From Candidatus Methylomirabilis limnetica (GTDB lineage: Bacteria; Methylomirabilota; Methylomirabilia; Methylomirabilales; Methylomirabilaceae): DNA of 32,000 nt. Numbering within the stretch: the stretch's first letter is position 1; the number at the start of each line of letters is the position of its first letter. The stretch spans positions 128,133 to 160,132 of the forward strand of contig NZ_NVQC01000016.1 of assembly GCF_003044035.1 (NCBI RefSeq), written 5' to 3'. Under the pieces are notes generated by a model that was given only the letters and a program-made list of their open reading frames with translations, had not been told where the DNA came from and did not search any database. Position numbers and translations under genes: made by a program. Below are positions 2,996-30,922 of this stretch, in pieces.

Positions 2996-3031
2996 GTGCA
3001 AAGGCCTGCCCCCGCGGGTGCGGGGGGTTCG

Positions 3032-3056
3032 GGGTACAGGGTGCAGGGTATGGGGG
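3032..3056 (+). repeat. Heptamer array GGGTACA GGGTGCA GGGTATG GGGG, preceded by a GC hairpin (3009-3026)
   Basis: Direct reading. The third unit contains the rsmH ATG (3050). The mraZ stop lies in a related GGGTATAGG at 2988-2996. Confidence 0.8.
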
Positions 3057-4348: not shown

Positions 4349-6142
4349 ATGCCGATGCAGCGTCGTACTCGCGAGAGATCGTCCAAAAAAGGAGAGGCCA
4401 CGCCCGCGCCAGCGAAGCTCGGCCGGTTACGGCGTCGCGTGATCGTGCTGTTCTGCTCGCTTGCTGCAGCCCTCACGATCATTTCCGGCCGGCTCTTTTC
4501 TCTCCAGGTGTATCAATACGCGGATCTCGTAGAGGCCGCCAAGCGGCAGTCCTCGGACCGGATTTCATCGGTCTCCAGGCGCGGAACGATTTACGATCGT
4601 AATGGTCGGGATCTGGCCATTAGCATTGGGGCTTCCTCAATTGGCGCTCGGCCGTCCCAAGTGGTGAACCCGAAACGTGCCGCCGCAGCCCTGTCTGCCG
4701 CGCTCAGCCTACCTGCCGAGAAGATCCTTGAGCGACTCCAAACGGAGAAGCCGTTTGTCTGGATCAAGCGATCAGTCTCCACGGAGGAAGCGCAGGCTGT
4801 TGCGCGTCTCATGCTGAAGGGGATCGAATCTGACACGGAGAGTAAGCGATTTTATCCAAAACAGCAACAGGCGGCCCACCTGTTGGGGTTTGTAGGGACA
4901 GACGATCGCGGGCTGGAAGGACTTGAGCTGCAGTACGATACCTACCTGGCCGGTAAGCGTAAGTGGCTTGCACAACAACAGGATGCCAGGCGTCGACCGA
5001 TCTTCAGAGAGGAAGCAGGTGAGGCGCAGGGTTCAGATCTACACCTGACGATTGATGAGGTGGTCCAGTATATCACTGAGCGGGAGCTGGAAGCCGCGGT
5101 GACCAAATCCGGCGCCCTCAGTGGCAGTGCCATTGTGATGGATCCTTTCAGCGGCGAAATCCTAGCACTTGCCAACTACCCCACGTTTGATCCCAATGCG
5201 TATACTGAGGCGGTGGCTTTCGCTCGCCGGAATCGGGCGGTGGTGGATTACTATGCGCCGGGGTCGGCCTTTAAGGCCATCGTGGGCGCCGGCGCCCTGG
5301 AGGAGAAACTCGTGCGACCCGAAGATCAGTTCGACGGAGATGGAGGCGCCATCACGGTGGGCGGGGTCACCATTCGGGATCATGAACGGTTTGGGATCAT
5401 GACATTTTCTGAGGTACTGGCTCACTCGAGCAATGTGGGGGCTATCAAGGTCGGCATGCGGCTGGGCAAGAGCCTCTACTACAATTACATCAGCGGATTC
5501 GGATTTGGAAATCTCACCAATATCGATCTGCCAGGAGAAACGCCAGGCTTGGTCCGGCGTCCGAAGGAGTGGTCGGCCCTCTCGCTCGCCTCGCTCTCCA
5601 TTGGGATGGAGATCTCCGTGAGTCCCCTGCAAATGCTGGTGGCGATGAGCGCGATTGCGAACGGTGGCATCCTGGTTCGTCCCTACGTGGCGAAGTCAAT
5701 CGTCGCGGCGGATGGCAAAGTTATCGTCGAGAACGCGCCCGTGCAGGTCAGGCGAGTGATCTCGGAAGCCACATCGAGAACCCTCGCGACTGTCCTCAAA
5801 GGGGTGGTAACGGAAGGGACGGGAAAGGAAGCGGCCGTAGAGGGATTCGATGTAGCAGGGAAGACCGGGACCTCTCAGAAGCTGGAACCAGCCACCGGTC
5901 GTTACTCTCAGCATAAGGTGGTGGCGTCATTTGTCGGGTTTGTCCCGGTCGAGCAACCTCGGCTGGCTATCATCGTGATCATCGACGATCCGAGCACGCT
6001 CCGTTGGGGTGGATCGATTGCAGCGCCGACGTTCCGGGAGATCGCTCGTGATTCCCTGAAACATCTCGGGATTACTCCGGGCACCCGAGAGCGGCTCCGG
6101 GTGGCAGAAGGGATTCGCAGTGCAACTTTTCGCCTTAATTGA
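4349..6142 (+). CDS. ftsI: peptidoglycan D,D-transpeptidase FtsI (class B PBP)
   Basis: 597 aa. N-terminal TM anchor and the transpeptidase motifs SAFK (GSAFKAIV), SSN (HSSNVGA) and KTGT (AGKTGTSQK). Confidence 0.9.
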   Translation: MPMQRRTRERSSKKGEATPAPAKLGRLRRRVIVLFCSLAAALTIISGRLFSLQVYQYADLVEAAKRQSSDRISSVSRRGTIYDRNGRDLAISIGASSIGARPSQVVNPKRAAAALSAALSLPAEKILERLQTEKPFVWIKRSVSTEEAQAVARLMLKGIESDTESKRFYPKQQQAAHLLGFVGTDDRGLEGLELQYDTYLAGKRKWLAQQQDARRRPIFREEAGEAQGSDLHLTIDEVVQYITERELEAAVTKSGALSGSAIVMDPFSGEILALANYPTFDPNAYTEAVAFARRNRAVVDYYAPGSAFKAIVGAGALEEKLVRPEDQFDGDGGAITVGGVTIRDHERFGIMTFSEVLAHSSNVGAIKVGMRLGKSLYYNYISGFGFGNLTNIDLPGETPGLVRRPKEWSALSLASLSIGMEISVSPLQMLVAMSAIANGGILVRPYVAKSIVAADGKVIVENAPVQVRRVISEATSRTLATVLKGVVTEGTGKEAAVEGFDVAGKTGTSQKLEPATGRYSQHKVVASFVGFVPVEQPRLAIIVIIDDPSTLRWGGSIAAPTFREIARDSLKHLGITPGTRERLRVAEGIRSATFRLN

Positions 6143-7634
6143 GGGGACCGAGTACCAGGTTCTCCACGGGTCTGTCGATGTAGAGGTCCATGATGTCCGA
6201 TACGATTCCAGACATGTGAGACCCGGGGATCTATTCGTGTGCATCAGTGGGTTCAGGCGGGATGGCCACGACTTCCTCCAAGCCGCATGGGCCGCGGGTG
6301 CCGTTGCAGCCCTGGTGGAGCGAAGCGACCTGCCGGAGGGTGCACTACGGGGTGGGACGGTGGTAAGGGTAGCCAATGCCCGGCAGAGCCTTGCCATGGT
6401 CGCGTGTCGATTCTATGGTCATCCCTCGCATAAGCTCGCCATGGTGGGGGTGACAGGGACTAACGGCAAGACGACCACCACCTACCTGATCGAGTCGGTG
6501 CTGCGACGCGCAGGACATCAGGTCGGGCTGATCGGGACTATCGGGTATCGCTGCAACGGGGTAGAGATAGAGGCGGCGCGGACGACACCGGAGTCCTACG
6601 ATCTGCAAGCGCTTCTCAATCGGATGGCGCATCTGGGCACTGACAGCGTCGTCATGGAGGTCTCGTCCCACGCCCTGGCCCTGCATCGCGTTGATGACTG
6701 CGAGTTTGACGTGGCCGTGTTCACGAATCTGACACAGGACCACCTGGACTTTCATGGCACCATGGAGGCGTACCGAAGCGCAAAGCTTTCTCTGTTTGAG
6801 GGGCTAGGTGTCGGGTCAACGAAAGCGACGGAAAAGGCGGCGGTCATCAATATGGATGATCCGGCTGCTGACCTCTTTCTCGGGGCGACGCGTGTGAGAC
6901 GCTACACCTACAGCGTGCAACGGCCGGCGGACCTGTCGGCCACCGATATCGATATGGGACCGGATGGAGTTCGGTGCCAACTGCACACCCCGTGGGGGAC
7001 GACGGCGATTCACTCTCCGTTACTGGGGGGCTATAACCTGTCCAACATCCTGGCAGCCGCTGCTACAGGGTTACATCTCGGCGTGGATCTGTCAGCGGTG
7101 GCAGACGGGATTGCCGCACTCCACCACGTCCCGGGTCGGTGTGAGCGAGTAGAGGGGGGACAGGAGTTCAGGGTGATCGTCGATTATGCGCACACCCCTG
7201 ACGCCCTGCGACGCGTCCTTCATATGGCACGGCAGTGCTGTCCGGGACGCCTGATTGTCCTGTTCGGGTGCGGGGGAGATCGAGATCGGGGGAAGCGTCA
7301 AATTATGGGAGAAGCGGCTCTGCAGTTAGCCGACTTTACTGTGATCACCTCCGACAATCCCCGCAGTGAGGACCCTCATCAGATCATCGAGGAGGTCGAG
7401 GCTGGGGCGAAAAAGGTATGGGGTCAGGGAAAGGGCTATGTTACAATTTTAGACCGGGCAATGGCCATTCGTGAGGCTCTCTCGCTGGCGGGACAAGGTG
7501 ACATGGTGGTGATCGCGGGGAAAGGGCATGAGGCCTATCAGATTCTTCACGATCGCACGATTCCCTTTGATGACCGACAGGTGGTCAGAGAGGCGCTTCG
7601 CGAGCTGGGGTTCAACCGTGAAGACAGGGTATAG
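6120..7634 (+). CDS. murE: UDP-N-acetylmuramoyl-L-alanyl-D-glutamate--2,6-diaminopimelate ligase
   Basis: GVTGTNGKTTTTYL P-loop, DYAHTPDAL, and DNPRSEDP (the DNPR motif typical of meso-DAP-adding MurE). GTG start overlaps the ftsI end by 23 nt. Confidence 0.92.
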   Translation: MQLFALIEGTEYQVLHGSVDVEVHDVRYDSRHVRPGDLFVCISGFRRDGHDFLQAAWAAGAVAALVERSDLPEGALRGGTVVRVANARQSLAMVACRFYGHPSHKLAMVGVTGTNGKTTTTYLIESVLRRAGHQVGLIGTIGYRCNGVEIEAARTTPESYDLQALLNRMAHLGTDSVVMEVSSHALALHRVDDCEFDVAVFTNLTQDHLDFHGTMEAYRSAKLSLFEGLGVGSTKATEKAAVINMDDPAADLFLGATRVRRYTYSVQRPADLSATDIDMGPDGVRCQLHTPWGTTAIHSPLLGGYNLSNILAAAATGLHLGVDLSAVADGIAALHHVPGRCERVEGGQEFRVIVDYAHTPDALRRVLHMARQCCPGRLIVLFGCGGDRDRGKRQIMGEAALQLADFTVITSDNPRSEDPHQIIEEVEAGAKKVWGQGKGYVTILDRAMAIREALSLAGQGDMVVIAGKGHEAYQILHDRTIPFDDRQVVREALRELGFNREDRV

Positions 7635-7647
7635 GGTGAAGGGTATT
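7627..7647 (+). repeat. Heptamer array GGGTATA GGGTGAA GGGTATT (single arm), followed by TGGTGGTGGTG
   Basis: Direct reading. The murE stop TAG (7632-7634) spans units 1 and 2. Confidence 0.8.
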
Positions 7648-7657
7648 TGGTGGTGGT

Positions 7658-8425: not shown

Positions 8426-10128
8426 TGCGGTCGGGTGTGGTACTTGGACCTTCACTCGCAGGCCGGGCCGTCACTGGTCTTTTGCCATATATGGCGGTCG
8501 TTATAATGCGCCATCTGGATCTGATATACCTTGCCCAGCTGGAGCGTTACAACAGTGCGCGCCTGCGTGGTTGGATCGCCAGGCACTGGGGCCTGGTTCT
8601 GAACGGCCGAGGGGCCCTCGTTCAGGTGGCGGTCTTAGGGGCCGGAATTCTCCTTGCGTTGTTACCTCTCCCTGTTTTTCCCGGCTTAAGGCATGCCGGG
8701 ACAGGCACGTTTTACATTATCTGGCTGGCCGCCGGTATGTGGCTGAGATCCCGGTGGTCCTCGCTGCAGGTCAGTCAGCAACTGCAGTGGACATCTCGAA
8801 CGGTACGCTTAGTAGCAGTCACGTTCCTCCTTGCGGTGGTGGCCATGCTTGTAACCTCCGGGTTGACTGTACTCTTACTGTCCAGACTCATGGTGGCCCC
8901 TCTCGCCCTCCTTGTCGGTATAGGCTTGGCTACCGGCCTGCTTGTGATGTCCGAGATTGCGGCGGGCACGGTCCTCGTGGCAAACCTGAGCCTCGCTCCA
9001 CTGGAGCAGGCGGTCAATCAACGCTTCTATGCGCAGGCTAAAGTGCGCATGCGTCAGTATCCCGGGGAGGTCGTCGGGATCACTGGAAGCTATGGAAAGA
9101 CGACGACGAAGTTCATCGCCGCGACGTTGCTTCAGAAGCGCTACTCGGTCTTTAAGACGCCTGACGGGGTCAACTCCACCATGGGTATCGTTCGGGTTGT
9201 CCGCGAGGCGCTTCGGGACGATCACCAGTTTTTCGTCGTCGAGGTGGCGGCCTACGGCCCCGGCGAGATCAAGGAGGTGTGCGAGATCCTGCGGCCCCGG
9301 ATCGGTATCCTCACGGCGGTTGGGGTCCAGCACCTCGAGCGGTTCGGCACGCCGGAACGGATCGCCGAGGCGAAGTATGAGCTGATCGATTCGCTTCCAC
9401 CGGATGGCTTAGCGATCGTGAACGCTGACGATCCAGGCGCTCTGCGATTGGCCGAACGCGCGAGGCGGGAAGGTCGACGCGTGATCTTGTACGGGGTCGG
9501 TGATGACGAACGGGATCTGGACGTTCGGGGGAAAGACGTCAAGCTCTCCAGCCATGGCTCGGCCTTTCGCGTGGAGACCGGGTATGGCGCGGCCATGTTC
9601 GAGACCAAGCTGCTCGGGGGCTGGAACATTGCCAATATCCTGGGGGCGACGGCTGCTGCCTTAGAGTGCGGTGTACCCCTGGAGGAGATTGCCGACGGGG
9701 TGAAGTCTCTTACGCCGGCGCCCAAGCGCCTGGAGCTTCGCGAAGAGGGTGGGGTCATCAAGCTGATCGATGTGGCCAACGCCAATCCGCTTGGGGCCCA
9801 GATGGCCCTGGAGGTCCTCAGCCAGTTTAAGGGGGGCTCGAAGATCCTGATCACGCCGGGCTTGGTGGAGTTAGGCCAGATCGAGGCGGAGGAGAACCGC
9901 CGGTTTGGCCGAGCTGCCGCTGCGGTCTGCGATTACGTCCTGTTGGTCGGGCCACAGCAGACACTACCGCTGCGTGAAGGGCTTCGCGAGGGTGGGTTTG
10001 CCGATAGCCGGATCCTGGTGGCCCGGCACAGCGGTGAAGTGACTGACCACCTCAAGGCGATCGTCCGAGAGGGCGATGTCCTGCTGTACGAGAATCGACT
10101 GCCTGATACGTACCTGGAGCTCGCATGA
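8425..10128 (+). CDS. murF: MurF-like Mur ligase (UDP-MurNAc-tripeptide--D-Ala-D-Ala ligase position) with a polytopic membrane N-terminal region
   Basis: P-loop GITGSYGKTTTKF at nt 9076, then LTAVGVQHLERFG and NANP motifs and a MurF-like C-terminal domain. About 215 residues with 4-5 hydrophobic helices precede the P-loop. ATG 8425 overlaps the hydrolase TGA (TGATG). An alternative GTG lies at 8407. Confidence 0.75.
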   Translation: MRSGVVLGPSLAGRAVTGLLPYMAVVIMRHLDLIYLAQLERYNSARLRGWIARHWGLVLNGRGALVQVAVLGAGILLALLPLPVFPGLRHAGTGTFYIIWLAAGMWLRSRWSSLQVSQQLQWTSRTVRLVAVTFLLAVVAMLVTSGLTVLLLSRLMVAPLALLVGIGLATGLLVMSEIAAGTVLVANLSLAPLEQAVNQRFYAQAKVRMRQYPGEVVGITGSYGKTTTKFIAATLLQKRYSVFKTPDGVNSTMGIVRVVREALRDDHQFFVVEVAAYGPGEIKEVCEILRPRIGILTAVGVQHLERFGTPERIAEAKYELIDSLPPDGLAIVNADDPGALRLAERARREGRRVILYGVGDDERDLDVRGKDVKLSSHGSAFRVETGYGAAMFETKLLGGWNIANILGATAAALECGVPLEEIADGVKSLTPAPKRLELREEGGVIKLIDVANANPLGAQMALEVLSQFKGGSKILITPGLVELGQIEAEENRRFGRAAAAVCDYVLLVGPQQTLPLREGLREGGFADSRILVARHSGEVTDHLKAIVREGDVLLYENRLPDTYLELA

Positions 10129-11435: not shown

Positions 11436-11440
11436 GAGCA

Positions 11441-11505
11441 GGGTATAGGGTAAAGGGTGTAGGGTCTAGGGGAGGATCGAGACGTGGAACTCCTAAACCC
11501 TCTAA
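11441..11505 (+). repeat. Heptamer array GGGTATA GGGTAAA GGGTGTA GGGTCTA GGGG plus a short complementary arm (CCTAAACCCTCTA, 11492-11504)
   Basis: Direct reading. Fills the ddl-mraY spacer. Confidence 0.8.
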
Positions 11506-11514
11506 TGAGGTTTT

Positions 11515-12597
11515 ATGCTGTATCACCTGCTTTTCCCATTGCATCAAAGCTACGCTGTCTTAAACGTCTTCCGGTACGTGACCTTCCGTACGGCCGGGGC
11601 CATCCTGACCGCGCTGCTGATCAGTTTGCTGTTGGGACCTGCGCTGATCCGCAAGCTTCAGGAGTTGCAGATCGGTCAAAGCATCAGGGACGACGGGCCA
11701 GCGGGGCATCTGCAGAAGGCCGGGACGCCTACGATGGGTGGGCTCCTGATCCTGGCCTCTGTGCTCATCGCCACGCTGCTCTGGGCGAATCTGACCAACC
11801 GGTTCGTCTGGCTTGCCCTGTTTTGCACGGTCTGGATGGGGGCGGTGGGGTTCATCGACGACTACCTGAAGGTGGTGTCCAAGAATAGCAAGGGACTCTC
11901 GGTCAGAACAAAACTGTTGTGGCAGGTGATTCCCAGCCTACTCATTGGACTCTTCCTGTACATCAACCCGGTTGATCCATTTACGACGAAGCTGACTATC
12001 CCCTTTCTCAAGGACTGGATGCCCGATCTGGGCTGGGGCTATGTCCTGTTCGTGGCGCTGGTCATTGTTGGCACATCTAATGCGGTGAATCTGACCGACG
12101 GCCTCGATGGATTGGCTATCGGCCCGATCTTGATGACCGCTGCGGCGTATACGGTCCTGGCGTACATTGCAGGGCATGCCAGCATCGCTCACTACCTGCA
12201 GGTGATCTTTGTGAGAGGGAGCTCTGAGCTCACCGTTTTTGGCGGTGCCATCGTCGGGGCCAGCCTGGGATTCCTCTGGTACAACGCGTACCCCGCGCAG
12301 CTCTTTATGGGCGACACCGGCTCTTTGGCGCTTGGGGCCGCCTTGGCTACGCTCGCTGTTCTGGTCAAGAGCGAGTTGCTCCTGCTCATCGTCGGGGGGG
12401 TATTCGTGGCAGAGGCCATCTCGGTGATCATGCAGGTCTTCTCCTACCGGACTACCGGCCGACGAGTTTTCAGGATGGCGCCCCTCCATCACCACTACGA
12501 GCTGAACGGGATGGCGGAGCCGAAGATCATTGTCCGGTTCTGGATCGTCTCCTTTATCCTTGCCCTGCTCTCGCTCACCACGTTGAAGTTGAGGTGA
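11515..12597 (+). CDS. mraY: phospho-N-acetylmuramoyl-pentapeptide transferase
   Basis: 360 aa. [25 protein letters not shown]-terminus, [23 protein letters not shown]. Confidence 0.95.
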
Positions 12598-12611
12598 AGG
12601 CGTTGAGAAAG

Positions 12612-12707
12612 GTTTCGAGCTTCGAGTTTCGAGTTTCGAGTGCCACATGTCAGGTTTCACGTTACGAGTTTGGCTTACTCGAAACCTGGAACCCGGAACC
12701 CGGAACT
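12612..12707 (+). repeat. Second-family heptamer element: GTTTCGA-type x4 (12612-12639), 20-nt core CACATGTCAGGTTTCACGTT (12644-12663), CGAAACC/YGGAACC x4 (12680-12707)
   Basis: Direct reading. Partially self-complementary. Homologous to the element at 16342-16410. Confidence 0.8.
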
Positions 12708-12721
12708 GCATGGTGGTAACC

Positions 12722-14104
12722 ATGCTGGATCTGGCCGGTAAACGGGTGGTGGTCGTTGGGTTGGCGCGATCCGGGGAGGCGGCCTGCCGCCTATTGCTCA
12801 AACAGGGCGCCACGGTCATCGGCACCGACCGCAGGGGTAAGCGTGAGATCGGCGCTGACCTCTGCAGCCTGGAGCAGGACGGGGTCAGTCTTGAGCTGGG
12901 CGAGCAGTACCTGCACTCCTTGCTCTCGGCCGATCTCGTCGTGGTAAGTCCGGGGATCGATCTGCGTGAGCCGCTGTTTCAGCGGGTTCGTGAGGTGGGC
13001 ATCCCGCTCATCGGTGAGGTCGAACTGGCCTACCGGTACAGTGAAGCCACATTCATCGGGATCACCGGGACCAACGGTAAGAGCACCACCACGACCCTTC
13101 TCGGCGCAATTCTGAAGCACGCCGGCATGCCTTCGCATGTGGCCGGCAACATCGGTACCCCCCTCTGCCGAGTGGCGCCTTCCCTCGCGGCGGGTGAGTG
13201 TGTGGTCGTGGAGCTATCGAGCTTTCAATTGGAAACGATCGAAGAGTTCAGGCCGCGCGTGGCGTTACTGCTGAATCTCGCTCCTGATCATCTTGATCGC
13301 TACGATCAGGTCGAAGACTATTACCAGGCCAAGGCTCGCATCTTCGAGAATCAACGGCCGTCCGACTTTGCCGTCATCAATGCGGACGATCCGCTGGTTC
13401 TTCAGGTGTCAGCACGGGCCCGAGGACGGAGGATCGCATTCAGCCGGACCAGGCCGCTCGATACAGGGGCGTATGTTGAAGGCGATCAGCTCATGCTGGC
13501 CCTTGACGGGAGGCGAGAGGCCATCTGCCGGGTGTCCGAACTCCAGATCCAGGGGGTACATAACCTGGAGAACGCCCTGGCTGCCGGCCTCGCGGCGGCG
13601 GTAGCCGGCGCCCCCACAACAGCGATCCGGATAGCGCTCACCAGTTTCGAAGGGCTGGAACATCGTCTGGAGTTTGTCGCGGAGATCGACGGCGTTCGCT
13701 ACGTCAACGACTCCAAAGGGACCAATGTTGGGGCGGTTGTCCGATCGCTGGAGAGTTTTACGAACCCCGTTGTGCTCATCGCCGGCGGCAGGGACAAGCA
13801 TGGCGATTTCGCGCCGCTCATCCCCCTGGTCCGCGAGCGGGTCAAGCGGCTGATCCTGATCGGTGAAGCCGCTGAGACGCTGCGGCGAACGCTGGCCCCC
13901 GCGTGTCCGACGGAGGATGCGTCCAGTCTCGAGGAGGCCGTTCGGCGCGCCGCAGCCGCCGCATCACCAGGAGAGGTTGTGCTGCTTTCGCCGGCTTGCG
14001 CCAGCTTCGATATGTTTACTGATTTCGAAGAGCGAGGACGCGTGTTCAAGGCGGCGGTACGGGAGCTTCTGCCCCCCGCTTACAGTATACCAGGGCAAGC
14101 ATGA
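12722..14104 (+). CDS. murD: UDP-N-acetylmuramoylalanine--D-glutamate ligase
   Basis: LAGKRVVVVGLARSGEAA Rossmann-type N-terminus, GITGTNGKSTTTTL P-loop. Alternative in-frame starts are ATG 12710 and ATG 12647 (inside the repeat). Confidence 0.9.
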   Translation: MLDLAGKRVVVVGLARSGEAACRLLLKQGATVIGTDRRGKREIGADLCSLEQDGVSLELGEQYLHSLLSADLVVVSPGIDLREPLFQRVREVGIPLIGEVELAYRYSEATFIGITGTNGKSTTTTLLGAILKHAGMPSHVAGNIGTPLCRVAPSLAAGECVVVELSSFQLETIEEFRPRVALLLNLAPDHLDRYDQVEDYYQAKARIFENQRPSDFAVINADDPLVLQVSARARGRRIAFSRTRPLDTGAYVEGDQLMLALDGRREAICRVSELQIQGVHNLENALAAGLAAAVAGAPTTAIRIALTSFEGLEHRLEFVAEIDGVRYVNDSKGTNVGAVVRSLESFTNPVVLIAGGRDKHGDFAPLIPLVRERVKRLILIGEAAETLRRTLAPACPTEDASSLEEAVRRAAAAASPGEVVLLSPACASFDMFTDFEERGRVFKAAVRELLPPAYSIPGQA

Positions 14105-15216
14105 TCGCTAAGCGCCCCTCCTACGATAGGCTGCTATACGGTGTCTCGCTGGTGCTGGTCTTGATTGGTATCGTCATGGTCTATAGCGCGAGCGCCATCA
14201 AGGCCCAGGATAAATACGGCGATCCATTCTTTTTCCTGAAGAAGCAGATCCTCTGGGCCGTGATCGGGATCGCGGTCATGGTCTGGGCCATGTACCGCGA
14301 CTACCGGACATTTCAGCGGTATGCGCCCCTGTTGTTCTTAGTCTCGCTGTGCCTTCTCTCCCTGGTGCTGATCCCGTCAATCGGGGTCAAGGTCAACAGC
14401 GCACAGCGGTGGCTCCGGCTGTTCGGGGTCTCCTTTCAACCTTCCGAGCTTGCCAGGCTCTCCATCGTTCTACTCATGGCCAGGATCCTCGCCAGAAGCG
14501 CCGATCGGGAGGAGAACTTCACCAAACGCTTCCTCAAACCGCTGAGCCTTGCCGGACTCGTTTGCGGCCTGATTGTGTTTCAGCCCCACATTGGGATGGC
14601 GGCGGTCCTGATGTGTGCAGTCTTGGCGCTGTGTTTTGTGGCAGGCGTCCGTCTCAGTCACCTGAGCATTATTGTTCTCGTGGTCGTGACGCTTGCCTCC
14701 ATGTTCGTCATGGCGCAGCCGTATGCCAGAACGCGAGTGATGACGCTGTTGGACCCTAATCACGCCTCATCCCAAGCAGCGCATCAGATCCACCAGTCAA
14801 TCACCGCATCGGGATCGGGGGGACTTCTGGGGCGGGGGCTCGGCGACAGCTTTGGGAAACTGGGTTATCTGCCCGAGTCCCACACCGAGTTCATCTTTGC
14901 CGTCGTCGGGGAGGAGACAGGTTTCGTGGGGGCTCTGCTGGTGGTCTTCCTCTTCGGTATTATCCTGTGGCGCGGGACCCGGATCGCACTCCGGGCGCCT
15001 GATCTGTTCGGCGCCTATGTGGCGATGGGAATTACCTTTAGCATCGTTACACAGGCCGTCATCAACTTTGGGGTGGTTGTCGGACTGCTACCCATTACGG
15101 GTTTGCCTTTGCCGTTGGTCAGCTTCGGTGGCACATCCCTGATCACCACCTGTTTAGGTATCGGGATCCTGCTCAGCATCTCCCGTTACCAGGCGGCGAG
15201 AGGACGACTCGCGTGA
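14101..15216 (+). CDS. ftsW: SEDS-family peptidoglycan glycosyltransferase FtsW
   Basis: 371 aa and polytopic. QPSELARL, ESHTEFIFAVVGEETGF and GLPLPLVSFGGTS motifs. ATGA overlap with murD. Confidence 0.9.
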   Translation: MIAKRPSYDRLLYGVSLVLVLIGIVMVYSASAIKAQDKYGDPFFFLKKQILWAVIGIAVMVWAMYRDYRTFQRYAPLLFLVSLCLLSLVLIPSIGVKVNSAQRWLRLFGVSFQPSELARLSIVLLMARILARSADREENFTKRFLKPLSLAGLVCGLIVFQPHIGMAAVLMCAVLALCFVAGVRLSHLSIIVLVVVTLASMFVMAQPYARTRVMTLLDPNHASSQAAHQIHQSITASGSGGLLGRGLGDSFGKLGYLPESHTEFIFAVVGEETGFVGALLVVFLFGIILWRGTRIALRAPDLFGAYVAMGITFSIVTQAVINFGVVVGLLPITGLPLPLVSFGGTSLITTCLGIGILLSISRYQAARGRLA

Positions 15217-16424
15217 AGGCCATCATTACAGGAGGTGGGACTGGCGGTCACCTCTTTCCTGCCATTGCGTTAGCCGAGGAGCTCAGGTCAAGAAGGACAG
15301 ACGTGTCGCTCCTATTTGTTGGCGTCGAGGGAGGAATTGAGGCATCTTTGCTGGCTACGAGAGGTTGGGACTTCGAAGGGATCAGGGCTTCCGGCCTACA
15401 GGGCAAGCGCCTCCTGTCGCGGCTTAGGAGCCTCACGCTGATCCCCTCAGGCCTCATCCGGGCTCTATCGATCCTTAGACGGTTCCGTCCCGATGTTGTG
15501 GTTGGGTTTGGTGGCTACGCCTCGGCTGCCATGGTACTGTCGGGAGTGCTTGCGAGGGTCCCGACCGTGATCCATGAACAGAACGCCTTGCCAGGGCTTG
15601 CCAATCGATGGTTGGGGAGGATCGTTGATAGCGTCGCGGTTGCCTTCGAAGAGGCATCTGATTTTTTCCCCAAGAGTAAGGTGCGGGTGACCGGTAATCC
15701 AGTCCGAGCGGAGCTCTTCGGCGTGAGCAGGGCAGAGGCAGCGACCCGCTTGGGTCTCGATCCAAATCGATTCACCCTTCTGATCTTCGGTGGCAGCCAG
15801 GGGGCTCACCGGCTGAACCAGGCGGTTATGGAGGCGCTCCCTAAGCTTACAGACGAGCGAGAGCGGATCCAGTTCATCCATGCCACGGGTCCGCGCGACC
15901 TTTCTCTTGTCCGGCAAGGGTATGACGCTCTTGGATATTCCGCGGCGGTAGAGCCGTTCTTTCAGGCGATGGCCGTGGCGTATGCCATCGCCGACCTCTG
16001 TTTCTGTCGGGCCGGCGCCGGCACGGTGGCAGAGCTCTGCGCCCTGGGGAAGCCGTCGGTACTCGTTCCGTTCCCCTTTGCTGCTAACGATCACCAGCGC
16101 TACAATGCTGAAGCGCTGGTCGCCTCCGGCGGAGCCCGGATGGTGCTGGACCACGATCTAAGTGGTGCCACGGTAGCCGAGATCATACGGACGTTTCTTC
16201 GCGACAGAGAGGGACTTGAGGTCATGGCACACAGGGCGAAGAGCTTAGAGAAGCCGGACGCGGCGATCCGCTTAGCCGATCTCGTGACGCTGACTGCGTG
16301 CCAGGCGCCAGGCGCCAAGTTCTACGTCGGGTTCCAGGTTTCACATGCCAGGTTCCACGTTGGAGATCCGAAACCCAAAACTCGAAACCCAAAACTCGAA
16401 ACTGGAAACTGCAGCGATGTTTAA
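15213..16424 (+). CDS. murG: UDP-GlcNAc--lipid I N-acetylglucosaminyltransferase MurG, with a repeat-encoded C-terminal tail
   Basis: GGGTGGHLFPAIALAEEL N-terminus. GTGA overlap with ftsW. 403 aa, of which the last ~40 codons run through the heptamer element. Confidence 0.9.
   Translation: MKAIITGGGTGGHLFPAIALAEELRSRRTDVSLLFVGVEGGIEASLLATRGWDFEGIRASGLQGKRLLSRLRSLTLIPSGLIRALSILRRFRPDVVVGFGGYASAAMVLSGVLARVPTVIHEQNALPGLANRWLGRIVDSVAVAFEEASDFFPKSKVRVTGNPVRAELFGVSRAEAATRLGLDPNRFTLLIFGGSQGAHRLNQAVMEALPKLTDERERIQFIHATGPRDLSLVRQGYDALGYSAAVEPFFQAMAVAYAIADLCFCRAGAGTVAELCALGKPSVLVPFPFAANDHQRYNAEALVASGGARMVLDHDLSGATVAEIIRTFLRDREGLEVMAHRAKSLEKPDAAIRLADLVTLTACQAPGAKFYVGFQVSHARFHVGDPKPKTRNPKLETGNCSDV
16342..16410 (+). 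repeat. Second-family heptamer element: core CACATGCCAGGTTCCACGTT (16342-16361) plus CGAAACC CAAAACT CGAAACC CAAAACT CGAAACT GGAAACT (16369-16410)
   Basis: Direct reading. 18/20 identity of the core with 12644-12663. Confidence 0.85.
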
Positions 16425-17796
16425 GAAGATCCGGCACATCCACTTCGTAGGGATTGGGGGAGTCGGGATGAGCGGGATTGCCGAAGTTCTCTACAATCTT
16501 GGCTATCAGGTTAGCGGCTCCGACCTGAAGGTGTCAGAGCATGCCCTTCGTCTCCGGGAGTTGGGTGTGACCGTACAGATCGGCCACGATCCCGCCCATG
16601 TAATGGATGCCGACGTCGTGGTCCGCTCCTCGGCGGTCTCTCCAGAGAATCCCGAGATTGTCGCGGCGAAGGTCCATGCTATCCCGGTCATTCAGCGGGC
16701 TGAGATGCTGGCCGAGCTGATGCGGATGAAGAAGTATGGCGTGGCCGTTGCCGGCACCCATGGGAAGACCACGACAACCTCCATGGTGGCCACGGTCCTG
16801 GCCAAGGCTGGCCTTGACCCTACCGTGGTCATCGGGGGCAAGCTGGATGCGCTTGGCAGCAATGCGAAGCTCGGGCAGGGCGAGTTCATGGTCGCGGAGG
16901 CCGATGAGAGCGACGGCTCTTTTCTCAAGCTGGCTCCCACCATCGCTGTGGTGACCACCATCGACGCCGAGCACCTCGATTACTACCGCGACCTGCAACA
17001 GATCAAGGAGACGTTCCTCGAATTCATCAATAAAGTCCCCTTCTACGGCTCCGCTATTCTGTGTCTCGATCAAGAAGAGATCCGAGACCTGTTGCCCAGG
17101 GTGCAGAAACGCATTGTCTCGTATGCCTGTAACGCGCGGGCTGATTTGACGGCAGAGGGGGTCTCGCTCACCGGACTCAGCTCCATCTTCAAGGTGAGGT
17201 TCAGGGGAGAGCCTCTGGGGGAGGTGCAACTCAGGGTTCCCGGGTTGCACAATGTGTCGAATGCGTTGGCAGCGATAGCAGTAGGCCTCGAGCTGGAGAT
17301 CGAATTTGCCGAGATCCGGACGGCGCTCGGGGAGTTCTCCGGTGTCGCTCGGCGCTTCCAGGTGAGGGGGAGTCCTCAGGACATCATGGTGGTGGACGAC
17401 TACGCCCATCACCCGGCAGAGATCCAGGCCACGCTACAGGCGGCCAGGGCTGGATTTGAGCGGCGACTGATCGCCGTCTTCCAGCCGCATCGTTATACCA
17501 GGACCTTCAGGCTCCTCCCCGAGTTTGCTTCCGCTTTCGATCTGGCCGATCAGGTGATCATCACCGAGATCTACCCGGCGGGAGAGGCGCCGATTGTCGG
17601 CGTCTCCGGCAGACAGCTTGCGGACGTGATTGCCAGCCGGAGAGGGCCAAAGGTCCTGTACGTGGAACGCAAGGAGGAGATCCCGGATCGGGTCGTTGAT
17701 CTGGCCCGTCCTGGCGACCTGGTCATCACTATGGGCGCGGGAGACATCTGGAAGGCCAGCGAGCAGATTGTCGGCCGACTGCAAGAAAGGGTATAG
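16417..17796 (+). CDS. murC: UDP-N-acetylmuramate--L-alanine ligase
   Basis: MFKKIRHIHFVGIGGVGMSGIA N-terminus, GTHGKTTTTSM P-loop. The track ORF start at 16345 lies in the repeat core. Confidence 0.9.
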   Translation: MFKKIRHIHFVGIGGVGMSGIAEVLYNLGYQVSGSDLKVSEHALRLRELGVTVQIGHDPAHVMDADVVVRSSAVSPENPEIVAAKVHAIPVIQRAEMLAELMRMKKYGVAVAGTHGKTTTTSMVATVLAKAGLDPTVVIGGKLDALGSNAKLGQGEFMVAEADESDGSFLKLAPTIAVVTTIDAEHLDYYRDLQQIKETFLEFINKVPFYGSAILCLDQEEIRDLLPRVQKRIVSYACNARADLTAEGVSLTGLSSIFKVRFRGEPLGEVQLRVPGLHNVSNALAAIAVGLELEIEFAEIRTALGEFSGVARRFQVRGSPQDIMVVDDYAHHPAEIQATLQAARAGFERRLIAVFQPHRYTRTFRLLPEFASAFDLADQVIITEIYPAGEAPIVGVSGRQLADVIASRRGPKVLYVERKEEIPDRVVDLARPGDLVITMGAGDIWKASEQIVGRLQERV

Positions 17797-17874
17797 GGTA
17801 GAGGGTGGAGGGTATAGGGTTTAGGAAAAGCACTGATGCTGAGGTTTATACCCTACACCCTAAACCCTATACCC
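17789..17874 (+). repeat. Inverted heptamer arrays: GGGTNNA x5 (17789-17825), 21-nt loop, TNNACCC x4 (17847-17874)
   Basis: Direct reading. The arms are complementary unit for unit. The murC TAG (17794-17796) lies in the first unit junction. Confidence 0.9.
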
Positions 17875-17879
17875 TAACT

Positions 17880-30194: not shown

Positions 30195-30282
30195 GTCATT
30201 GCGAGCGACCAACAGGAGCGCGGCAATCTCACCGTACTTTCACTGCGAGATTGCTTCGGTCGCTATGCTCCCTCGCAATGAC
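30195..30282. repeat. GC-rich palindromic repeat (GTCATTGCGAG...GCAATCTC / GAGATTGC...CTCGCAATGAC)
   Basis: Arms 30195-30230 and 30247-30282 are complementary at both ends with a divergent middle. It lies between convergent genes. Confidence 0.8.
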
Positions 30283-30346: not shown

Positions 30347-30679
30347 TTAGCCAGCGGGGGCTGGCGCTGCGGTAGGGGCCGGCGCTGCGGCGGCCGCCAG
30401 CGCTGCGGCAGCCGGCTTTTCTTCCACAGGTACCGGTGTCGGCTTTGTGACCGACAGTTGCCACCGGATCAACCCGCCTAGAATCTTCTTCGGGGTGGCG
30501 ACGGTATAGCCCTGGCTGGTTGCCCACTGCTGTATCTCCCCTACCAGCGATTGCTCTGGCACGACAATCACCAGCTCGTCGTCTGCTGCCAACTCCTGCA
30601 GCGCCAGCTTGGCCTGGGGCAATCGGTAGTGACTCATCTCTCCTAGCAACTGAAAGTATCGCGTCATCGCTGTCATCAT
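30347..30679 (-). CDS. TusA/SirA-like fold protein lacking the catalytic Cys, with an Ala/Pro-rich C-terminal tail
   Basis: 110 aa. AAGGAGG directly upstream of the ATG cluster. LLGEMSHYRLPQAKLALQELAADDELVIVV..EIQQWATSQGYTV follows the TusA beta-alpha-beta pattern, but the CPxP motif is replaced by SHYRLP. Confidence 0.5.
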   Translation of the reverse strand: MMTAMTRYFQLLGEMSHYRLPQAKLALQELAADDELVIVVPEQSLVGEIQQWATSQGYTVATPKKILGGLIRWQLSVTKPTPVPVEEKPAAAALAAAAAPAPTAAPAPAG

Positions 30680-30714
30680 CCTCCTTGGCGTTTCATTTTC
30701 GTTGAGGGTCGAAA

Positions 30715-30841
30715 CCCCGCGGCTTGCCGCGAGTTCGTCATACCGGCGGAAGCCGGTATCCAGCGGGCCAGACTGGATTCCGTGTCAAGCACGGAATGAC
30801 TGGCCAGAACAGAAGACGATACCCCGCGGCTTGCTGCGGGG
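30715..30841. repeat. Composite palindromic repeat: two hairpins (30741-30758, 30777-30797) flanked by direct repeats CCCCGCGGCTTGCYGCG (30715-30731, 30822-30838)
   Basis: Direct reading. TACCGGC/GCCGGTA and ATTCCGTG/CACGGAAT stems. Confidence 0.8.
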
Positions 30842-30922
30842 TAGTTCATTTGAGAAGACATTGCCATCCAAAGACTACCAAAAGGTGCAAGTGCGAGTCA
30901 ACGCACGTTTTCGCTTTTCCCC

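Follow-up and report, generated by a model that had tools for sequence, protein, structure and literature searches.

The stretch of DNA analysed here (the window, 32,000 nt of Candidatus Methylomirabilis limnetica, contig NZ_NVQC01000016.1) contains the dcw (cell division and cell wall) cluster of this member of the NC10 bacteria, with the gene order mraZ, rsmH, ftsL, ftsI, murE, hydrolase, murF, ddl, mraY, murD, ftsW, murG, murC, murB, ftsQ, ftsA, ftsZ; the encoded MurD and its M. oxyfera counterpart share 91% identity. Our subject is a pair of related elements built of seven-nucleotide repeats, the mraY-murD element (copy 1) and the murG-murC element (copy 2). A sequence-only reading of the window had described them as two copies of a 20-nt core flanked by heptamers, each with an ATG in frame with the mur gene downstream, and had named coincidence, a repeat-borne start or leader, and selection against stop codons as possible reasons. 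Its coordinates, its heptamers, the identity of the two cores at 18/20 positions and both ATGs were all confirmed in the sequence. Both copies recur with 100% identity in two independent assemblies from other sequencing runs (L022 and L023; here and below, L-numbers denote loci or lineages of relatives and P-numbers denote MurD homologue proteins), hence the repeats are not assembly artefacts. Repeat-number polymorphism was looked for among identical-protein strains, and both loci obtained match the window at 100%.

The mraY-murD element

The spacer between the stop codon of mraY and the consensus start of murD at 12722 measures 124 nt and houses copy 1. The features of this junction are:

11515..12597, plus strand: mraY, 360 aa (open reading frame (ORF) list; PF00953 on orthologous loci)
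12598..12611, plus strand: 5' segment of the inserted element, AGGCGTTGAGAAAG, purine-rich and Shine-Dalgarno-like (filled and empty junctions compared)
12612..12639, plus strand: left heptad array GTTTCGA GCTTCGA GTTTCGA GTTTCGA, 5' arm of the hairpin (Tandem Repeats Finder, RNA fold, consensus fold)
12640..12679, plus strand: decayed heptads GTGCCAC ATGTCAG GTTTCAC GTTACGA GTTTGGC and apical loop, in the same 7-nt register (sequence)
12680..12707, plus strand: right heptad array CGAAACC TGGAACC CGGAACC CGGAACT, then GCA, 3' arm of the hairpin (Tandem Repeats Finder, folds)
12708..12725, plus strand: small hairpin GCATGGT-GGTA-ACCATGC (fold)
12722..14104, plus strand: murD, consensus start MLDLAGKR (orthologue N-termini, Shine-Dalgarno pairing energies); a start 4 codons earlier, at 12710, is possible

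The final codons of mraY, TTGAGGTGA, combine a strong Shine-Dalgarno-like GAGGTGA with the stop codon (12595-12597). The boundaries of the insertion follow from junctions that lack it, namely L016, in which the two genes are joined as TGA-C-ATG, and M. oxyfera, with a spacer of 13 nt: compared with L016, copy 1 corresponds to positions 12598-12708 (111 nt) inserted between TGA and CATG. The 5' segment adjoins the base of the hairpin and is missing at the empty sites, and a (G)TTGAGAGA-like motif is retained in 8/9 element-bearing lineages. The 20-nt core CACATGTCAGGTTTCACGTT (12644-12663) and its ATG at 12647 both fall within the stretch of decayed heptads, which is almost invariant in the alignment of five lineages. 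The small hairpin at the 3' side holds both candidate starts of murD, the in-frame ATG at 12710 and that at 12722, together with a Shine-Dalgarno-like GGTGGT; in L010 it reads GCATGGC-GGTA-GCCATGC, with a T-A pair replaced by C-G on both sides. Comparison of filled and empty sites (TGA/AGGCG...AACTG/CATG) revealed no target-site duplication at the ends of copy 1, and its assignment as a miniature inverted-repeat transposable element is not supported, as the inverted arms are present but the duplication is not.

The two arrays face each other and are complementary, so that copy 1 is predicted to fold into one long hairpin of ~36 bp (12611-12707) with a minimum free energy of -46.6 kcal/mol when flanks are included (z-score -2.9; 0/200 shuffles as stable). 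In gapless register the helix of the window comprises 22 Watson-Crick pairs, 4 G·U pairs and 4 mismatches out of 30 positions, and across the sequences compared the same register yields 22-25 Watson-Crick and 1-4 G·U pairs of 30, with the mismatch at the seventh position of every heptad. A conserved A·C mismatch recurs at every seventh pair, and position 7 of the unit is unpaired in nearly all sequences. The consensus structure of the five sequences of the window type (see below) contains 36 pairs. Between heptad types (GTTTCGA/CGRAACC versus GTTCCAA/TGGAACC) 86% of the cells pair, as opposed to 3-52% with slid partners, and in seven pairs both partners are altered (from G-C to A-U, position 6 of the unit); since the units within an arm evolve in concert, these two-sided changes amount to few independent events. 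Rfam reported no match at the gathering threshold over the whole window, and a permissive search of 12500-12800 returned only sub-threshold microRNA-like hairpin hits (E >= 0.05). Scans for an intrinsic terminator on either strand and for a sigma-70-like promoter were negative at both copies.

We compared the mraY-murD junction in 15 lineages, which fall into four classes:

Empty junction, 5 lineages: L006, L016, L018, L019, L021 (M. oxyfera with a 13-nt spacer with AGAGG; L016 and L019 with TGA-C-ATG; L018 and L021 with 13 nt)
Window-type element of exactly equal length, 5 lineages: window, L004, L003, L009, L010
Other heptad variants, 4 lineages: L014 (GTTCCAA/CGGAACC, 231 nt), L015 (GTTCCAA/TGGAACC), L017 (ATTTCGA/CGGAACC), L020 (degenerate)
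Unrelated nonamer palindrome, 1 lineage: L007, 96-98% identical to the window over the cluster

The number of units is constant among the five window-type lineages and the identical assemblies, and both length and unit type differ in more distant lineages. Contig L003 (DATMXF010000086.1, 33.6 kb) is labelled as a Patescibacteria group bacterium; it carries a Methylomirabilis-type dcw cluster with 84-86% identity to the window and is therefore probably mis-binned. In L007 the region 4434-4600 is occupied by the nonamer palindrome GCGTTCATT.../...CAACAAACG (-66.6 kcal/mol), and similar nonamer repeats are found with P0001, P0003, P0015 and P0026.

Within the window-type group the 112-nt junction is 88-99% identical between lineages, compared with 51-89% at third codon positions in the 600 nt of mraY and murD next to it. 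Between L004 and L003 a single one of the 112 positions is different, and not a single indel separates the five lineages over this length. In bins of 30 nt copy 1 equals or exceeds the best-conserved coding bins, identity being 97-100% for all pairs in the bin spanning the inner left arm and the first part of the core. Recent recombination is an unlikely cause, because the neighbouring bins are not unusually similar, and so is homogenisation among many copies, because the scans of the collections found a single core in each contig or genome (see below). As copy 1 is nearly invariant while the neighbouring synonymous sites have diverged, purifying selection acting on it as a nucleotide sequence is the simplest reading.

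The tail of MurG and the in-frame ATG codons

Copy 2 had been placed in the murG-murC junction. It does not reside in a spacer, however: the murG ORF runs through the entire element and overlaps the ATG of murC by 8 nt (ATGTTTAA). The features of this region are:

15213..16424, plus strand: murG ORF, 403 aa; copy 2 encodes its variable C-terminal tail (stop overlapping the murC ATG)
16298..16341, plus strand: left side of copy 2, decayed NNNCCAN heptads GTGCCAG GCGCCAG GCGCCAA ... GTTCCAG GTTTCAC (sequence; Tandem Repeats Finder at 16300-16317)
16342..16361, plus strand: core of copy 2, CACATGCCAGGTTCCACGTT, ATG at 16345 (18/20 identical to the core of copy 1)
16369..16413, plus strand: right array of six CGAAACC/CAAAACT/GGAAACT units and GCA, ending GGAAACTGCA (Tandem Repeats Finder)
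16417..17796, plus strand: murC, consensus start MFKKIRHIHF (orthologue comparison, annotations)

At the position of the left side of copy 2 M. oxyfera carries (GCGCCAG)x3. The 3' part of murG that follows the codons for ...ADLV varies in length between relatives (102 nt in L016, L004 and M. oxyfera, 120 nt in L009, 150 nt in the window, L007 and L003), all aligned differences being multiples of three. The murG frame is open in every lineage, and in six of the seven with an aligned junction it runs up to the ATGTTTAA stop/start overlap; the same holds for L018 and L021. In L003, with a homologous 150-nt tail, the core of copy 2 reads CACATACCAAG, with ATA where the window has ATG, and the murC frame is interrupted by TAA at -57 and TGA at -27. 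The in-frame lengths of the tail, along with the ATA and the stops in L003, indicate that selection keeps the murG frame open and not that of murC. Selection against stop codons, one of the reasons proposed for the open frames, is thus supported for the frame of murG through copy 2 but not for that of murC. In a comparison of the window with L003 the identity of the tail is only 74%, as opposed to 97% for copy 1 in the same pair, and copy 2 folds no better than its shuffles, without a significant hairpin between its two sides (fold z-score +0.19; 110/200 shuffles as stable). All this leads us to regard copy 2 as a fast-evolving, repeat-derived C-terminal tail of MurG rather than an N-terminal extension of MurC. 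Other repeats occupy this position in two further relatives: in L019 (about 9560-9680) a different palindrome, GGGGCGAAACATGTTTCGCCC, lies in frame in the C-terminal tail of MurG (protein of 401 aa), and in L020 a shorter MurG is followed by a 39-nt spacer with yet another palindrome before murC.

The ATG codons at 12647 (MSGFTL...) and 16345 (MPGSTL...) do open stop-free frames, of 25 and 24 codons, that lead to the consensus Met at 12722 and 16417, respectively. Nonetheless, no stop codon is present in any of the three plus-strand frames over copy 1 (12605-12716) or copy 2 (16292-16421), as the GTTTCGA and CGRAACC arrays contain no stop triplet in any plus-strand phase; the open frame is therefore uninformative, and only the phase of the ATG is left to be explained. 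Dinucleotide shuffles contain a single open frame of this length in 36% of cases for copy 1 and 55% for copy 2, as do 57% of all 75-nt windows within the G+C-rich 32 kb, and the phase itself has a chance of 1/3 per copy, i.e. ~0.11 jointly, for a pattern noticed post hoc.

That ribosomes initiate at 12647 and 16345, giving rise to extended MurD and MurC or to an in-frame regulatory leader, is in our opinion very unlikely. The retention of the ATG in all five window-type copies of copy 1 speaks for it, as do the 485-aa MurD and the 483-aa MurC present in some public annotations and further annotated extensions from other junction variants (P0025, P0029, P0033). The pairing energies with a generic anti-Shine-Dalgarno sequence do not favour these two ATGs: -2.5 kcal/mol for ATG 12647, the weakest among annotated starts with negative values, -5.0 for 16345, -3.5 for 12710 and -9.0 for 12722 (GGUGGU), most gene starts in the window being at -7 to -12. 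ATG 12647 is also located in the apical part of the predicted hairpin of copy 1, and ATG 16345 within the translated tail of murG. Most of the 47 closest MurD homologues begin with M[IL]DLxGKR, and the putative peptides are not conserved between element variants. Of the variable sites of the putative leader 5/10 fall at third positions, which is no significant excess (binomial p about 0.2), though the substitutions are too few to weigh for or against a coding sequence. The loss of the ATG and the two stops in the murC frame of copy 2 in L003 speak against such a start; stops in other copies were part of what the sequence-only reading had itself named as contrary evidence. It had also asked if orthologues carry such extensions; in addition to the common N-terminus, five lineages lack the element at the mraY-murD junction altogether.

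Element-borne ATGs at other junction variants are in phase in 6/7 cases, but these loci had been chosen for their annotated extensions, and we rejected this count as evidence; among the four loci chosen irrespective of extension L018, L019 and L021 are empty and L020 is degenerate with an out-of-phase ATG. A repeat-borne start would nevertheless not be absurd in this system. In L007 the right arm of the nonamer palindrome continues in frame into murD and the canonical Met is replaced (...IDANLAGKR), so that the start of MurD there must be a repeat-borne ATG (MDAIDATNATNAMDAMNAIDAIDANLAGKR), and the same is true for P0015 and P0026. For the window, coincidence is the best account of the phase: the in-frame ATG is most likely incidental to a repeat that lacks stops and not a hidden start codon, and we infer that murD starts at 12722 or 12710, not at 12647. 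Public annotations conflict, with three MurD starts for the window sequence (485, 464 and 460 aa) and two for MurC (459 aa on 16 contigs, 483 aa on one); the present data favour the short forms, gene callers apparently having been misled by the stop-free repeats.

Heptad families and the proposed role of copy 1

Tandem Repeats Finder reports period-7 arrays at both copies, and seven is the only over-represented period in the window, with six arrays of at least 3 units as opposed to 0-1 at periods 5, 6 and 8-11. A pattern of the core allowing up to 3 mismatches matches exactly two sites in the window, i.e. both copies (0.00 expected in shuffles). In a 7-nt register copy 2 reads GTTCCAG GTTTCAC ATGCCAG GTTCCAC GTT, and when the stretch around ATG 12647 of copy 1 is aligned with the left arm of the mraY-murD element of L015 (GTTCCAA GTTCCAA GTGCCAA GTTCCAG GTT), the ATG of the core falls on the GTG of the GTGCCAA unit. 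With the register of the left array continuing through it, the core represents the inner end of that array in decayed form, its ATG being a mutated start of a heptad (GTG/GTT); it is not a module of its own. The proposed homology of the two copies thus stands, and what has to be given up is the discrete 20-nt unit: to judge from the repeats, the two sites are members of a family of imperfect palindromes with a period of seven that is specific to the lineage and populates dcw gene junctions. The scan of 185,579 species genomes and the JGI metagenomes with the core pattern (collections that lack the window's genome) retrieved only the orthologous mraY-murD copies of L003, L009 and L010; six further matches in unrelated DNA and taxa were taken as chance.

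Another heptad family, AGGGTAT, occurs in the window at 3024-3055, 7626-7657, 11440-11471 and 17788-17877. The stop codon TAG of the upstream gene lies inside the first unit of such arrays (murE, 7632-7634; murC, 17794-17796), and at 17788-17877 the AGGGTAT array faces an ACCCTAA array, with which it forms a near-perfect hairpin (-52.7 kcal/mol, z = -7.7). On the plus strand these arrays match the (G3N4)x4 G-quadruplex motif, like the GGGNATC repeats (PMC4692102). The copy at the ddl-mraY junction is highly variable in length among relatives. In L010 (reverse strand) this junction, ~100 nt 5' of mraY, contains a chimera whose left part is made of AGGGTAT-type units and whose right part is (CGAAACC)x4, which indicates that units of the CGAAACC family also occur at other dcw junctions in other lineages.

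Taken together, these observations lead us to propose, with moderate confidence, that copy 1 is a conserved non-coding hairpin acting in cis in the intercistronic RNA, with a role in translational coupling and perhaps in processing, and that copy 2 is its decaying relative in the tail of MurG. Copy 1 would be co-transcribed in the polycistronic mRNA and remain untranslated. With the hairpin closed, only a few nucleotides would separate ATG 12710/12722 from the mraY stop, from GAGGTGA and from the GAGAAAGG of the element itself, and in a virtual junction with the closed hairpin GAGGTGA pairs at -11.5 kcal/mol. In this manner the translational coupling of murD could survive an insertion of 111 nt through folding, as in models of coupling (PMC12548453). 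The long imperfect duplex may additionally serve as a determinant of RNA processing or stability, and the regular A·C mismatches may let a duplex of ~40 bp persist as DNA.

Several observations weigh against this proposal. No fully compensatory changes were found in the five window-type copies, and the share of stem substitutions that keep pairing in this set (8/12) is what chance would give for transitions. The two strands fold with equal energy, each having one wobble and one A·C mismatch per heptad, hence the energy can tell neither the strand nor RNA from DNA; G·U pairs had been expected to favour a sense-strand RNA, which the equal energies do not bear out. The Shine-Dalgarno energies refer to a generic sequence and not to the host's own. 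The core ATG and its open frame are conserved in all five window-type copies, which leaves translation from it a small probability, although the whole element is invariant in length and all its frames are open. The bridging and processing functions of copy 1 are putative. Finally, copy 1 is dispensable, with 5/15 lineages empty and an unrelated nonamer in the closely related L007; this patchy presence and replacement keep a mobile or neutral alternative alive and fit a selfish or neutral element at least as well.

According to this alternative, copy 1 is selfish or neutral repeat DNA without a function in cis, merely tolerated at operon junctions; replication slippage would build the arrays, and either intrastrand template switching (quasi-palindrome correction) or the movement of a miniature mobile element would keep the arms complementary, while the ATG would be a coincidence here as well. 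We consider this possible, but rather unlikely. It would readily accommodate the different heptad families of very variable length at other junctions, the CGAAACC units at the ddl-mraY junction of L010, the fast decay of copy 2 and the arms of L014, whose types are mismatched with each other; besides, heptanucleotide arrays are the commonest class of long simple-sequence repeats in prokaryotes (PMC4679880). It would not predict, however, that copy 1 is far better conserved than the adjacent synonymous sites with no indel in 112 nt, nor that target-site duplications are missing from its boundaries, nor that the core is single-copy in the scanned collections apart from chance matches.

Copy 1 could also be a site recognised in double-stranded DNA, e.g. 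a binding site, an atypical internal promoter or operator serving the distal dcw genes, or a signal of some other kind. The arms, the core and the 5' flank are conserved alike with no coding signature, and the equal folding of both strands would suit a DNA site too. The scans for promoters and terminators, on the other hand, found none on either strand; the arms as DNA contain two mismatches per heptad, of which one becomes a G·U pair in RNA, and close relatives with the same operon lack the element. This makes such a site highly improbable.

A bolder version of the RNA hairpin, which we regard as doubtful and a long way from likely, is that copy 1 represents an undescribed cis-acting RNA module of NC10 bacteria, a hairpin of 14 heptads with a conserved A·C at every seventh pair that, placed between a stop codon and the next start, recreates by folding a geometry for ribosome binding or coupling, or acts as a specific processing or protein-binding site. 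The heptad and nonamer modules at the junctions would then be exchangeable cassettes that can donate start codons and terminal residues to essential Mur enzymes.

The window contains several further repeats. The region 2451-2520, just 5' of the mraZ ORF (2546-2995), exhibits a promoter-like TTGACA...TATTGT pair and, downstream of it, three direct repeats GTGGGATGAA GTGGGATATA GTGGTATAAA with a period of 10 nt; presumably this arrangement resembles the MraZ operator of other bacteria. A 43-nt inverted repeat with arms 93 nt apart and TGAAGGY / AGCCTTC heptads at the inner ends is located at 283-461, upstream of an ORF that starts at 462. Near the other end of the window we found a palindrome with 41-nt arms, GTCATTGCGAGCG...CGCAATGAC (30195-30282), an 18-nt tandem repeat GGGGCCGGCGCTGCGGCA x3 (30357-30411) and a 29-nt direct repeat CGAAACCCCGCGGCTTGC... 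with copies 107 nt apart (30710-30845).

Significance and relation to known systems

The comparison of relatives suggests that exchangeable repeat hairpins are tolerated at the junctions of an operon that is essential and, as a rule, closely coupled; one of these hairpins is conserved beyond the level of synonymous sites, and some junction elements contribute translated residues to the termini of Mur proteins. Should the hairpin indeed act in coupling or mRNA processing, it would provide a compact natural case of structure-mediated intercistronic control and a way to approach the high frequency of heptameric repeats in bacteria, for which there is as yet no explanation. A literature search retrieved no paper that links Methylomirabilis or NC10 bacteria to heptamer repeats, and none of the systems considered below is known to unite a pair of heptad arrays that face each other in a single periodic hairpin.

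Heptameric arrays between co-oriented ORFs have been described as GGGNATC in Xanthomonas and Nostoc, where four units are preferred (PMC4692102), as TAACTGA in Beggiatoaceae and cyanobacteria (PMC4679880), and as GGACCGG elements of four heptanucleotides in Geobacter metallireducens (PMC2700814). The elements studied here share with them tandem units of 7 nt, about four per array, which are presumably transcribed with the operon, vary between relatives and lie close to stop and start codons, with the genes on either side in the same orientation (the mraY-murD spacer and the 3' end of murG). In contrast to these arrays, two facing complementary arrays here form one long hairpin with a mismatch at every seventh pair, and the core is single-copy in the scanned collections. 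The GTTTCGA/CGRAACC units, moreover, are not rich in G, which precludes quadruplexes in this family.

The extragenic palindromes of the REP, BIME and REPIN types are present in hundreds of almost identical copies and linked to a RAYT transposase (PMC3116915). Copy 1 resembles them as an intercistronic imperfect palindrome with the potential to form an mRNA hairpin and with presence or absence among relatives; it differs in that the core was found only at orthologous sites in the core scans and that its arms are internally periodic.

The mycobacterial MIRU are reportedly intercistronic repeats of operons whose open frames join the flanking stop and start codons, and they raise the same question of translational coupling through an intercistronic repeat; they are said to be non-palindromic, to measure 40-100 bp and to vary in number between strains, unlike the 7-nt units in two inverted arrays seen here. 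The RPE of Rickettsia, reportedly multi-copy elements of about 100-150 bp inserted within functional domains, are a closer parallel to copy 2, which likewise is repeat DNA translated in frame into extra residues (the tail of MurG, with 102, 120 and 150 nt all in frame); as opposed to RPE, copy 2 lies in a dispensable C-terminal tail and no longer folds.

In gene 38 of bacteriophage T4 the ribosome-binding site is bridged by a hairpin, a stem-loop restoring the proximity of the Shine-Dalgarno sequence and the start codon. Copy 1 similarly would place a stem-loop between the Shine-Dalgarno/stop region and the start codon, an arrangement it also shares with the models of coupling (PMC12548453). 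The hairpin of copy 1 is much larger, at about 97 nt, and the likeness to gene 38 would be one of mechanism, by analogy.

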